64,000 nucleotides of DNA from a virus (taxonomy: Duplodnaviria > Caudoviricetes). Where the stretch lies: positions 96,001 to 160,000 of the IMG/VR virus record IMGVR_UViG_3300043754_000129, one strand, 5' to 3'. The translations under genes were made by a program, and so were the position numbers. The notes beneath the pieces were generated by a model, which had not been told where the DNA came from, did not search any database, and saw only the letters and a program-made list of their open reading frames with translations. Position 1 is the first letter of the stretch. Every line of letters starts with the position of its first letter. Positions 1 to 13,385 of this stretch are shown piece by piece.

Positions 1-805
1 TATTGTTCCAATGAAGGAGTTGGGGGAGACCCGCCTCGCCATAGCGATCCTGGGGTCTCCCTCCGTTTTTGCTCTATGCTTACCACGCTGAGCAGTTGCG
101 GTCCCGTCATGACGTCGTACCTACAGGGTTGCAGGAATTATGGCCAGGCAGTCCCATTCCCATGTCAATGCAGCTCAAAGGCGGCGAACAGAGGGGATCG
201 GCGAAAGTGACTCTATATATGCAACTCATCCGGTAGGTCTAGTGTCGCTACCCTACTAAGGGTAGATTTACTCTTGGGAAAGCTTGCGAAAGGGCTAGAT
301 ATGGCCCAGGTTTATGCGTACGCCGGCGATTTCATGCCCCACCCCCTTAGCCTTTTACGCAAGGCCCTTATGCGCGTGTGATAAGTCAATTGGTCGTGAC
401 TAACCGTGCCAGCGAGATCTCGCCTGATGAAGGCCGTCGGCAATGTCAATGCATAGCGGACGATGCCATAGCGAGTTGGCCCCTAATACTCCCGGCGCTC
501 GCCGAGAGGTGTCGCGATACTAGATCCGGTCAATGAGTGCCCGTCCACCACAGTTCCCACACCGCAGTGATCGTCAGAAGCCGCATTCTCGAAGTCTAAC
601 CGCTAATTCCCGTCAAGGAACAAATCGATAATCTAGTCGAACCGTACATCCGTAAAGCTCCGGATCGTTCTCGCGAGCAGCAGCGCGCGTACACCGCGCG
701 GGTACAGGTCAGGGAATTCAGTCAGGCCTCGAATGCTATCGTAAAGTGCACCTACCTGTCCCCGCAAGAGGCCTTTCGCCTCCGAAGAATGCGCGCTGCC
801 CAAAC
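1..805 (+). ncRNA. Candidate large structured non-coding RNA (may begin upstream of the window)
   Basis: No credible ORF over ~800 nt. Nested helices: 119-133/220-238, 248-254/259-265, 583-589/786-792, 605-611/712-718, 724-730/768-774. GNRA-type loops at 201-208 and 283-292. G-U pairs mostly favour the + strand. Confidence 0.5.
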
Positions 806-1273
806 TTAACCCACCACGATCAGCGTGGTGTTCAATGCTTTCTTGTCCCACAGGTACTCGTAGACTGCGCGACGAGCAAAGTGGAACCAGTGACTGGCTT
901 CGTCAATCAGAAACTCGTCAAAGTCGCCCAGAGTACCATCGGCGATACGCACCTTGAGTTCATTGGCGGTGATGAGGCGGGCTTTCACGCTCTCTTCAAG
1001 TTCGCCACGGTCAAACCGGTGCGCCGACAACAGGCCTGTCCTGAGAAAGCTGTCGCGCACCACCATGAGCGCCTTCTCGTTGCCCATGATGCGTTTGACC
1101 ATCCAGTAGGACTTGCCCATCTGCCGCGGCACGTTGAAACCAACCGTGCGGTATTCGCCGAAGAAGGTCGGACCGAACGTATCGATGTGGCCGTACTTCT
1201 CAGCCACTTCTTGACCGTTCTTCAGACCAATCAGCAGCTCATTAACGATGAGATCGAAATCGATTCTTTTCAT
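806..1273 (-). CDS. Small P-loop NTPase resembling a truncated terminase ATPase domain
   Basis: Walker A-like VPRQMGKS and Walker B FLIDEA in a 155-aa ORF. Confidence 0.7.
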   Translation of the reverse strand: MKRIDFDLIVNELLIGLKNGQEVAEKYGHIDTFGPTFFGEYRTVGFNVPRQMGKSYWMVKRIMGNEKALMVVRDSFLRTGLLSAHRFDRGELEESVKARLITANELKVRIADGTLGDFDEFLIDEASHWFHFARRAVYEYLWDKKALNTTLIVVG

Positions 1274-1299: not shown

Positions 1300-1626
1300 T
1301 TACAGCGAGTCGATGTCGACGGCGACAGCAGCTTCACCCGCGCGCGATTGCACGATGGCTGCCAGTTCTTCGTCTTCGATCTTCAGCGCTTTCTTGACGT
1401 AGTCGATGATCGACTGCGGCGTCGTGAACTTCTCGGCGTCTTCGTCTTCGATACGCAGATCGAATTCGTCTTCCGCAGCCATGGTGAGTTCCACCACGTC
1501 CAGGCTGTCACCGCCCAGGTCTTGTACGAACGACGAATCGTTCTTGACTTCGCTGATGGAAACGCCGAGTTGTTCGGCGACGATTTGCTTGACGCTTTGT
1601 TCGATCTGTTGTGCGGTCTTTGCCAT
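1300..1626 (-). CDS. acpP: Acyl carrier protein with a C-terminal extension
   Basis: IVAEQLGV...[24 protein letters not shown]; DSL phosphopantetheine-attachment motif intact; start placed at MAKTAQQ. Confidence 0.92.
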
Positions 1627-1636
1627 GATGGTCTCG

Positions 1637-2107
1637 TTACATCTTGAACTTGGTGACCACGGGCTCACCCGTATCGAAGGTCACCACCAGGGCCGTGCCG
1701 AAGTCGTCTTCGGGCCACGGGTCAGGATACTCGTGATGCTTGGCCCCGAGACCCTTGAGGAGGTCGGGGATCTTGCCGTGATGCCAACAGATCAGCGTGA
1801 TGGGGTCTGCCAAATCCAGGCAGCTCACCAAGCTCTTGCCCAACTCGCGGGCCTTGTCGTCTTCGATCGAGGCGATCAGTTGCGCGTTTTCGAGAGATTC
1901 GAACAGCGGCAGGATCGTCTGTAACGGCCGGATGCTGTGCGGGCTCGGAGCCGTCGCGTAAATGGTGTCGGGTGTCCCGAAGTTCTGGGGGATGTATTCC
2001 TTCCACTTTTCGGCGCGATGAAGGCCCAGGGCAGACAACCTTTGGTCGCCCTCTCGTATCGGCTTTTCTGCATGGCGAATGATGATGATCTTTTTCTGCG
2101 ACTTCAT
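1637..2107 (-). CDS. Histidine phosphatase superfamily protein (SixA/PGM-like)
   Basis: N-terminal IIIIRHAEK (RHxE motif) and a second His in ICWHHG. Confidence 0.8.
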
Positions 2108-2129
2108 TTCTGTTCCACCTGCTTTTGTA

Positions 2130-2780
2130 ATTAGGTCTCTTCGCTACTAACGCCGAGCCAGTTGGGAATGCCCACCCCGTTTGCGGACATTCCGAACCAG
2201 CCAAGTACGTGATTCGGTCTACACACTACCTCGCCAAAGCGATCCTGAGTGTGCAGATACAACAATGGTCTTCCTGACCTTACGATCTCGTGCGAAGCGG
2301 ATGCATGAGTTGGCCGTACCGACGCAAGTATTGGCGGCTTTCACCGCTGTAAGTCTTATTCGGCTTGACTGCTCCCACACATCAGTAACGTCTGCTCTCA
2401 TTCGGAACACATTAAGCGCGCCGGCGCCTCCCATGCCTGGAAGGTGTGAACTCAAGTCTCAGCAGTCCGTCAGTCCGCGATGATCAACCCACTAATAAGC
2501 GGGCTTGTATTTGTTCGTTTTAGGTTGGAAGAGGTACTGGCAAGCAGACGCGTCATTGTCCCTTTACCACAGTAAGTCTCGCCAGTGGGGGTGATCCATA
2601 CGGTCCCCGTTTGACCGCGGTATCTCGCCACCACTTTAGGCGCATGTGTAAAGGAGGGACGAAAGCCGAACGAACGCCCGTCGTTGGCTCTCTTGACGCG
2701 TTCCACTTGATCGTAAGTCGCTGCCAGCGAAGCGCTTGAATAATCGTGCGCCAGATGCCGTCAGCGAACCTACGAAACCA
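2130..2780. ncRNA. Second candidate large structured non-coding RNA
   Basis: ~650 nt with no credible ORF. Helices at 2165-2173/2185-2193, 2367-2373/2461-2467, 2376-2380/2444-2448, 2486-2492/2499-2505 and 2334-2347 (GAAA loop on - strand). Shares a motif with 25-60. Confidence 0.5.
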
Positions 2781-2781
2781 G

Positions 2782-3786
2782 TTAGAGCACCACGCCCGTG
2801 TCAGTCGCAACGTCGTTCTTGCCGATGATGTTGGCTTGCGCAACGCGCGCACCTTCATCCGTCTTGAACTCGTCGAGCACCTTGTTCAGATGCTTGGCGA
2901 CGTCACCGAACACGCCGTCGCTCGTCACGTAGTGGTACGGGCTCGACAGCGTCTTGCCGTTGAACGTACCATCCACGAAACCGACCTTCTGCATTTCCGG
3001 GCGCTTTGCGAGCGTCGGATCCAGACCGTCGGCGGCCAGCGTGGTGATCGAGATCAGATTGCCGATCTTATTCAGATCGGTATCGACCTTGTCGGTGAAC
3101 AGCGACAGCGCGACCAGGTTCGGCGAGTAGGACGTGACACGATGGAAGTTAATCCAGTTGTACAGGTCCATGCCGTCCAGTTCGCGATTGCGGCGCGAGA
3201 ACAGGAGCAGCAGTGCCGACACGAGGTCTTGCACGCGCGCGTCGACGGCGGCACGGTTCATGTCGCGGCCGTTTTGCAGGTAGTACATGACCACCGGCTT
3301 CTTGCGCGTGTTGATCGCGATGTTCTGGTACGACTTGATCGTCTTCAGCGTGTTCTCGGTCCACGTCTTCGTGGCATCGTCGCCGACCATCACGACGATC
3401 GTGAGCTTGTCGTTGCCGAGCAGTTCCGAGGTCAGGCAGGAAGCGAGCACGGCGCCCGTGCCACCACCGCCCGAGGAGACGACGATGTTCAGATCGGCAG
3501 GCTTGAACAGGTTGAGGATCTCACGCGTGCGTGGCGCGATGTCCTCGTAGTTCTCGGCGCGAATGCCGCCCGAGCCGTCCTTGCCGTCGACCAGGTAAAG
3601 CTTGTCAGCGGGGATGCCTGCGTGCAGGTTGGCCTTCGAGGTGTCCAGGTAGACCGTGTCGAGGTTGGCGAACACGTTCTGATCGGTTTGCTTGGTCAGC
3701 ATCGCGGCGACCTTGCTTCCGATATTGATACCGGCACCACCGCAGGAGAACAGCCGCACGAGACCCAATTCACGTTCGTGAGTCAT
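2782..3786 (-). CDS. phuZ: PhuZ phage tubulin (tubulin/FtsZ family)
   Basis: FSCGGAGINIG and VVSSGGGGTGA tubulin signature, DGSGG loop; start at MTHERELG (334 aa). Confidence 0.93.
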   Translation of the reverse strand: MTHERELGLVRLFSCGGAGINIGSKVAAMLTKQTDQNVFANLDTVYLDTSKANLHAGIPADKLYLVDGKDGSGGIRAENYEDIAPRTREILNLFKPADLNIVVSSGGGGTGAVLASCLTSELLGNDKLTIVVMVGDDATKTWTENTLKTIKSYQNIAINTRKKPVVMYYLQNGRDMNRAAVDARVQDLVSALLLLFSRRNRELDGMDLYNWINFHRVTSYSPNLVALSLFTDKVDTDLNKIGNLISITTLAADGLDPTLAKRPEMQKVGFVDGTFNGKTLSSPYHYVTSDGVFGDVAKHLNKVLDEFKTDEGARVAQANIIGKNDVATDTGVVL

Positions 3787-3850
3787 GTTTTCATTCCTTG
3801 GTGTTGGGGAGATGCTTCCTCCACATACGAGAGTGGAGGCACGTAAAAAA

Positions 3851-4183
3851 CTACCGGAGCCCCAGTTCGCGGAGTTCACGAGACACCAGCGATTGGGAAA
3901 TGTCCAGGTACTGCGCGATCTGCATTTGCGTCTGATGACACGCATGCAGCTTCTTGATCCAGATGCGACGCTCGTCCTTATTGAGGTCGTTCGGATCGAA
4001 GGCGTGACCGTCGAGCGTGTAGCGGTGGATGGCTTCCGTGAACACACCGTCATGCAGCGTGCTGCCATAGGCGACCATCAGGCCACCAGCGCCCGTGACC
4101 GTGAACTGATCGAAGCCTTCGAGTCCCAGCTCTTTGGCCAGTTTCTCGATGCTTTCCATCAGGTTATCCATGTGCGTTACCAT
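3851..4183 (-). CDS. Small protein with a C-terminal helix-turn-helix
   Basis: TQMQIAQYLDISQSLVSRELR HTH pattern; GGAG RBS upstream. Confidence 0.7.
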   Translation of the reverse strand: MVTHMDNLMESIEKLAKELGLEGFDQFTVTGAGGLMVAYGSTLHDGVFTEAIHRYTLDGHAFDPNDLNKDERRIWIKKLHACHQTQMQIAQYLDISQSLVSRELRELGLR

Positions 4184-13350: not shown

Positions 13351-13385
13351 GCATAGACCCCGCCCGGTTGGGCGGGGCTTATGCC
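13351..13385. terminator. CATA...TATG-footed hairpin between convergent genes
   Basis: GCATAGACCCCGCCC-GGTT-GGGCGGGGCTTATGC. Confidence 0.7.

Follow-up and report, generated by a model that had tools for sequence, protein, structure and literature searches.

A two-helix RNA hairpin with a fixed internal loop flanks the acyl carrier protein gene in a group of PhuZ-encoding jumbo phages of Burkholderiaceae

Two non-coding tracts at this locus contain nearly the same 19 nucleotides, which raises the question of whether the pair is a coincidence or a genuine RNA element and, in the latter case, what might read it. The window, that is, the whole 64-kb stretch of DNA that was analyzed, comprises bases 96,001-160,000 of a 323,678-bp IMG/VR virus record. 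Its ORF at 2782-4068 on the minus strand matches Pfam Tubulin and TubZ_C_2, the C-terminal domain of phage TubZ. The PhuZ homologues are 331-339 aa long and span 78% of this ORF; therefore, the true phuZ gene corresponds to 2782-3786. The nearest named phage is Burkholderia phage FLC9, with 38% PhuZ identity, and more similar homologues were found in soil metagenomes and among the contigs of Paraburkholderia and Caballeronia assemblies; the Caballeronia arationis assembly includes a nearly complete relative. The tubulin match and the origin of the PhuZ homologues from Burkholderiaceae contigs and soil indicate that the window belongs to a PhuZ-encoding, phiKZ-like jumbo phage of Burkholderiaceae. 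The minus strand carries all genes surrounding both hairpins, and the order of transcription is phuZ, tract B, a 156-aa protein, an acyl carrier protein (ACP), a 155-aa protein, and tract A. The features are given below in window coordinates, except for the tRNA genes.

2782-3786, minus strand: phuZ tubulin gene (334 aa), the upstream anchor of the module
2108-2781, minus strand: tract B, structured non-coding RNA of ~670 nt, from phuZ to the next gene
2218-2257, minus strand: hairpin copy B; 42.8 bits (model R1), 38.8 bits (model R2)
1637-2107, minus strand: 156-aa protein with an N-terminal RHAE motif (histidine-phosphatase-like)
1300-1626, minus strand: ACP gene (PF00550, E = 4e-16)
806-1273, minus strand: 155-aa protein with Walker A-like GKS and Walker B-like DEAS motifs
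1-805, minus strand: tract A, the portion within the window, downstream of the ACP cassette; conserved non-coding RNA region
24-61, minus strand: hairpin copy A; 44.7 bits (model R1), 43.5 bits (model R2)
Genome 93,912-95,569 (L009 1912-3569), minus strand: seven tRNA genes (Thr, Ile, Asn, Ser, Glu, Asp, Gln)

The ACP of the window phage bears a C-terminal extension of ~25 aa. A Pfam search with the 155-aa and 156-aa proteins that flank it matched no family, and hence no transposase family.

The 19-mers at 34-52 and 2229-2247 are identical at 18 of 19 positions, with the sole mismatch in the loop. As the original prediction had it, the stems that close them differ in sequence but pair, and we could extend them to 9 bp in copy A (24-32 paired with 53-61) and to 10 bp in copy B (2218-2227 paired with 2248-2257). 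One position of the copy B outer stem is an A-C on the plus strand, which corresponds to a G-U pair on the minus strand. Read on the minus strand, copy A consists of the 9-bp outer stem, CAGGA, UCGC-UAUG-GCGA, GGC, and the second strand of the outer stem. Copy B is composed in the same order of the 10-bp outer stem with its one G-U pair, CAGGA, UCGC-UUUG-GCGA, GGU, and the outer stem. The likelihood of a chance match had been put at about 1e-4; the arithmetic is right for two 700-nt tracts, but about one 18/19 match is expected by chance when the 64-kb window is compared with itself, so that sequence identity alone is weak evidence. Both window hairpins are more stable than shuffled sequence (z = -3.1 to -4.3), and the covariance model detects the two copies with E values of 1e-7 to 1e-10. 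Together with the in-register complementary flanks and the syntenic copies with differing stems in relatives, described below, these values make chance untenable. Comparative sequence evidence thus confirmed that the hairpin pair is not due to chance and is a genuine RNA element.

Relatives were sampled as phuZ neighbourhoods with 47-77% PhuZ identity. The gene strand was searched with a descriptor that consisted of an outer stem of at least 4 bp, CAGGA, an inner stem of 3-5 bp, a loop, GGN, and the outer stem. Exactly two copies were found in the window genome and in each of L004, L006, L011, L012, L043, L252, L253, and L255. In L008, copy B was found and the contig ends past it, and in L010, copy B was found by the descriptor and a variant copy A (AGC for GGC) by the covariance model. 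The hairpin occupies the same two places, i.e., after phuZ and after the ACP gene, in 11 related genomes or contigs. Copy B is always situated near the 3′ end of the tract that follows phuZ, and copy A always near the 3′ end of the tract that follows the ACP gene. The outer stem sequences are wholly different among genomes and also between the two copies of one genome. The inner stems observed were UCGC/GCGA, UCC/GGA, GGGU/ACCC, GCC/GGC, UCGG/CCGA, and UCCGA/UCGGA. In the internal loop, CAGGA is invariant, and its 3′ side is GG followed by A, C, or U and never by G (AGC in copy A of L010). In the model-based alignment, 99% of the cells are paired, and changes on both sides were observed in 10 out of 10 pairs. 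The covariation score, which was obtained from this alignment fitted to the covariance model, was 0.807; shuffles scored 0.185, and slid registers no more than 0.12. Independently, alignment of the tract A 3′ domain with MAFFT followed by RNAalifold recovered an 11-bp outer stem of hairpin A, with compensatory changes in 8 of the 11 pairs. The conserved structural module that had been proposed to be common to both tracts is borne out by these covarying stems and invariant internal-loop bases. The comparison describes it as a two-helix hairpin, in which the stems vary freely and the asymmetric internal loop (5′-CAGGA / GGH) is fixed.

The comparison also bears on how the 19-nt identity of the window copies arose. 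The inner stem of copy B in the window phage is that of copy A (UCGC/GCGA), and in its closest relative, L008, copy B has GGGU/ACCC. In relatives, copies A and B mostly share only CAGGAUC and GG. Judging from these differences, the identity is partly lineage-specific, and either conversion between the copies or convergence could have produced it.

The original prediction did not decide between the two strands. Across the copies, 11 G-U pairs are present on the gene strand, each of them an A-C mismatch on the other strand, and 14 of 20 copies fold more stably on the gene strand. Loops UUCG, UCCG, UACG, and GAAA, which are of the UNCG and GNRA types, are frequent among the B copies. These three lines of evidence settle the strand as minus and indicate that the hairpin is an RNA structure read on the gene strand.

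The specificity of the element was assessed with covariance model R2. The 19 recovered copies score 26.7-43.8 bits, and nothing else was found at E ≤ 1 in 181 kb of the relatives; the B copies of L006 and L253, which have 4-bp stems, were identified by the descriptor alone. The scan showed the same two sites to be conserved in relatives, and in the whole 323,678-bp genome just two copies, A and B, score, with the next best candidates at 14-17 bits. No hairpin was detected in the complete genome of FLC9, in L254, or in L013 by the covariance model with filters off. A search of 151 Burkholderiaceae genomes with R2 at E ≤ 0.01 yielded one phage contig only, plus two chance matches, of which one is within a coding sequence and the other has an outer stem of only 4 bp. 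We rejected mimicry of a host RNA (SRP RNA, rRNA, or similar), since none of the 151 genomes has a host chromosomal copy. Viral, genome, and metagenome collections were also scanned with exact and gapped patterns; the matches are nearly all due to chance in GC-rich DNA, and the true ones were limited to L043, L265-L267 (partly duplicates), and L270. The pattern match in L003 was rejected as a chance one, located inside a signal-peptide coding sequence. When the 64-kb window was searched against Rfam 15, there was no gathering-score match for the hairpins or the tracts. At E ≤ 5 over 7 kb, no match was obtained on either hairpin or on tract B, and the matches seen were tRNAs and weak sub-threshold YrlA-like, tmRNA-like, and other ones in or before the tRNA cluster. 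A full-text literature search returned no description of the hairpin element. By these searches, it is a clade-specific RNA element of PhuZ-encoding jumbo phages (Burkholderiaceae, soil) with two copies per genome. It appears to be an undescribed element of a known general kind, that is, a cis-acting phage hairpin with a conserved recognition loop.

The hairpins are part of larger RNAs, which contain many covarying helices and a pseudoknot. Neither tract A nor tract B shows codon periodicity in a frame-specific GC plot. For tract B, an alignment of 10 relatives gave 73 consensus pairs, 39 of them with compensatory changes, long-range helices included. Hairpin B is located ~110 nt ahead of the downstream start codon in the window and is enclosed by a predicted long-range helix inside the larger fold. 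A loop-strand pairing in this tract covaries, GGAAGA/UCUUCC being replaced by GUGAGA/UCUCAC in other genomes; AGGAA just upstream of copy B, which takes part in the covarying pairing with the distant UCUUCC segment, is therefore not a free GGA site. Across relatives, tract B measures ~0.5-0.7 kb, directly follows phuZ, and has at least eight helices with compensatory changes and long-range closing helices. We consider tract B a candidate for a new large phage RNA or a structured leader. Tract A shows conserved blocks and helices across 10 relatives, with a strongly conserved 3′ domain closed by hairpin A. It extends past the window start (L009 3570-4000) to a small ORF and the cluster of seven tRNA genes. 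The blocks of its 3′ domain are near-invariant, and relatives have in it a 12-nt self-complementary stretch, CACGACGUCGUG, the window version of which is at ~104-121 on the plus strand.

The two tracts had also been taken for one RNA family, and this part of the original prediction did not hold. A blastn comparison of tract A with tract B detected only the shared 19-mer, and an HMM of tract B (nhmmer) found nothing significant in tract A. Moreover, no 6-mer is present in all but at most one tract of both sets, A and B. The hairpin is the sole similarity between the tracts; thus, they do not belong to one family. We also observed gene-free tracts of ~760 nt after phuZ in L254 (7003-7761) and in FLC9 (L309, 8156-8925), despite the absence of ACP from both, and the tract of L254 has no detected sequence similarity to the window tracts. 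The site downstream of phuZ seems to be preferred for long non-coding sequence in this phage group.

The gene content between the hairpins was compared across relatives with tblastn. ACP is the only gene found between the hairpins in every genome carrying both, and in G002, a complete relative, the one ACP gene present occupies the between-hairpin place. In L011 and L252, ACP is the sole gene between the copies. The ACP gene is absent from FLC9, L254, and L013, and so is the hairpin. The 156-aa protein is missing in some of the motif-bearing genomes and is present in L013, which is motif-less, and the 155-aa protein was found in some relatives only. Judging from the gene contents of L013, L011, and L252, it is ACP and the two tracts that the hairpin pair accompanies, rather than the other genes. 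A single evolutionary gain may have brought in the motif, the tracts, and ACP together, in which case their co-occurrence in 11 genomes does not amount to 11 independent events.

The surroundings of copy A were compared with other hairpins of the window genome. The genome has about 40 mostly intergenic sites at which (U)UUAUGCC directly follows a plain GC-rich hairpin. Examples in the window are at 13379(+), 24498(-), 27087(-), 28447(-), 47841(-), and 57922(-). The loop at the hairpin-UUAUGCC(G) sites is often UUCG, and GGCAUA often precedes the hairpin, extending the stem. Such sites are probably a phage terminator and/or a TATG-type promoter signal. In L010, L011, L012, L252, and L253, copy A is positioned 8-14 nt upstream of a UUUAUGCC(G/C)UCA tail, and UUUAUGCC is the tail of the ~40 sites in the window genome. 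In L254, which is hairpin-less, this UUUAUGCC(G/C)UCA tail is also found ahead of the same downstream operon. The UUAUGCC tail is absent after both window copies and after all B copies. The window copies were not called as intrinsic terminators on the minus strand, and their 3′ flanks are not U-rich; a U-rich 3′ flank accompanies copy A in L006, L010, L012, L253, and L255. From its position, copy A is considered to mark the 3′ boundary of the ACP module, and it may be part of a terminator in some genomes, though not demonstrably in the window.

Starting 27 nt past hairpin A is a conserved small ORF of ~74 aa whose paired cysteines are zinc-ribbon-like (genome 95,773-95,997 on the minus strand, L009 3773-3997). 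It is also found in L004 and probably in L270, and it has no Pfam match. In the window copy A, the loop contains an AUG that lies 5-6 nt after AGGA and is in frame with this ORF. A role of copy A as the start site of the small ORF was rejected because the loop AUG occurs in the window only and is absent in relatives. The tRNA genes come after the small ORF in the window phage and in L004, and in L255 a tRNA directly follows copy A. Between the tRNA genes of the window phage, there are sub-threshold Rfam matches to YrlA (Y RNA-like) of 34.7 and 28 bits. The tRNA cluster of L004 is similar, and one of its tRNAs has a 4-base anticodon call.

What could read the element? Two RNA contexts that are unrelated to each other retain identical unpaired bases and have no partner sequence in common, which favors a trans-acting factor. 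We regard as most likely, with roughly an even chance of being correct, that a shared trans-acting reader, probably a protein, recognizes the internal loop and acts on both ends of the ACP module. A single factor of the phage or the host would bind the loop of both hairpins and treat both boundaries of the RNA-ACP-RNA module alike. On the ACP transcript, its effect would be on 3′-end formation or termination, on processing, on stability, or on translation. Structure, strand, copy number, synteny, and the link to ACP are direct results of the comparison, and from them we infer the factor and its effect. Binding of a protein to the hairpin is plausible. Genes for L7Ae (PF01248), CsrA, and TROVE proteins were searched for in the 323,678-bp phage genome, and none was found. 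A co-occurrence screen for ORFs shared with motif-bearing G002 and absent from FLC9 returned 88 ORFs and has little power. The 19 strongest of them and the small ORF after copy A gave nothing RNA-related in Pfam; for these 20 ORFs, two sub-threshold matches only were obtained, to a weak HTH and to Peptidase_M48. Cleavage by RNase III was rejected as a role of the hairpin, since the upper stem is no longer than 3-5 bp and the outer stem is 4-6 bp in several B copies.

The hairpin could instead be a purely architectural module, whose loop takes on a specific three-dimensional shape or helps the large RNA to fold through a tertiary contact. Both copies do lie within large RNAs with covarying helices and a pseudoknot, and the long-range helix predicted around hairpin B would suit such a role. 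However, the host RNAs are unrelated and offer no shared 6-mer or profile match as a common receptor, there is no conserved UCCUG-type complement, and identical loop bases in two different folds are hard to explain by self-contacts alone. We consider this explanation unlikely, although it deserves attention. The preferred reading, a factor that binds both loops, may also be taken further. The hairpins might serve as address tags for a dedicated RNA-binding protein that handles the two large RNAs and the ACP message as one unit. Such a protein would sort, retain, or export the RNAs across the phage nucleus, or would assemble a ribonucleoprotein. This extended version is speculative and rather doubtful.

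It is improbable that the element is a riboswitch-like sensor of an ACP- or CoA-linked metabolite, which would tune termination at copy A and folding of the leader at copy B. The constant link to the ACP gene and the punctuation or terminator signal that adjoins copy A in half of the relatives agree with a sensor, and a shared UUYGG just after copy B could pair upstream or downstream. On the other hand, a 5 × 3 loop, of which seven bases are fixed, would make a very small aptamer, none of the riboswitch families in Rfam matched even at E ≤ 5, and a copy at the 3′ end of an operon is unusual for riboswitches.

The invariant GGA of the loop, and a second AGGAA 20 nt upstream of copy B, bring to mind sites of a host CsrA/RsmA-type regulator. 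CsrA sites typically present GGA in the apical loop of a short hairpin, and they tend to be multiple and to overlap a ribosome-binding site. Here, GGA is in an internal and not an apical loop, and the upstream AGGAA is the covarying pairing partner of the distant UCUUCC segment. There are only two sites, at distances of 27 to ~200 nt from start codons, and the phage has no CsrA gene; regulation of this type is very improbable.

Kink-turns require tandem sheared G-A/A-G pairs, with G-A on the bulged strand and also on the opposite strand, where it adjoins the C helix, and A at position 1n. The original prediction called the loop loosely kink-turn-like, and indeed an asymmetric purine-rich internal loop separates two helices, and the 5′ side on the minus strand (outer stem, CAG, GA, inner stem) can be read as a 3-nt bulge followed by G-A. 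However, the opposite strand is G-G-H (3 nt) rather than G-A and has one extra unpaired base, and the A at position 1n that kink-turns conserve is absent in most copies. H is A in only ~8 of 20 copies, and there the kink-turn register would break the covarying inner stem. The phage has no L7Ae-family gene, and we find a kink-turn bound by an L7Ae-type protein scarcely credible. Equally scarcely credible is a DNA-level element, whether as ssDNA hairpin sites or as the ends at which a mobile ACP cassette recombines or transposes. In its favor, the copies are direct repeats on either side of a cassette that is missing from some relatives. Against it, the hairpins are placed near the 3′ ends of the tracts rather than where the variable unit begins and ends, all of the intergenic sequence is different in L254 and FLC9, RNA is indicated by the G-U pairs and the RNA-type tetraloops, the relatives' copies share only CAGGAUC and GG, and the flanking proteins match no transposase family.

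In nucleus-forming jumbo phages, to which the hairpin-bearing group belongs, RNA is made inside a protein shell by the phage's own multisubunit polymerases. To our knowledge, very little is known about cis-acting RNA signals in these phages. The hairpin pair flanks a conserved module, composed of two large structured RNAs and a phage ACP, next to the spindle tubulin gene, and the comparative support for it is unusually clean. At ~35 nt, the element is a mutable handle with which its reading factor could be isolated and the role of the large RNAs and the phage ACP probed. The address-tag reading, if true, would make the hairpin the first known signal for sequence-specific RNA handling in this phage family.

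Small cis-acting RNA hairpins present in two copies per genome are exemplified by boxB of the lambda nutL and nutR sites (N antitermination) and by putL and putR of phage HK022. The boxB hairpin has a 5-bp stem and a GNRA-like pentaloop with no internal loop, and put is a two-hairpin element. Their copies are located in leader or untranslated regions, and they combine variable stems with specific conserved unpaired bases that a protein or the polymerase recognizes. The element described here resembles them in its two copies per genome, varying stems, and kept unpaired bases. It differs from them in that neither sequence pattern is present in the hairpins and one copy is at the end of an operon, not at its start. 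The tracts that host the hairpins are, like GOLLD and ROOL, structured phage RNAs of 0.6-1 kb, one of which adjoins tRNA genes; at E ≤ 5, however, they match neither GOLLD, ROOL, nor any other structured-RNA family of Rfam, and their sequences and helices are unrelated. The IS200/IS605 and REP/RAYT systems combine a Y1 (HUH) transposase with border hairpins, whereas here there is no transposase match and the hairpins are not at the borders. Conserved stem-loop motifs occur at transcript ends in phages 201phi2-1 and phiKZ (PMC11512511), and the hairpin-UUAUGCC sites of the window genome recall these terminator motifs (PMC11512511). Copy A in five relatives is like the generic terminator motif in being a GC-rich hairpin just before a UUUAUGCC tail. 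At the generic sites, an uninterrupted plain stem directly adjoins the tail, whereas copy A carries the CAGGA/GGH module and stands 8-14 nt from the tail.
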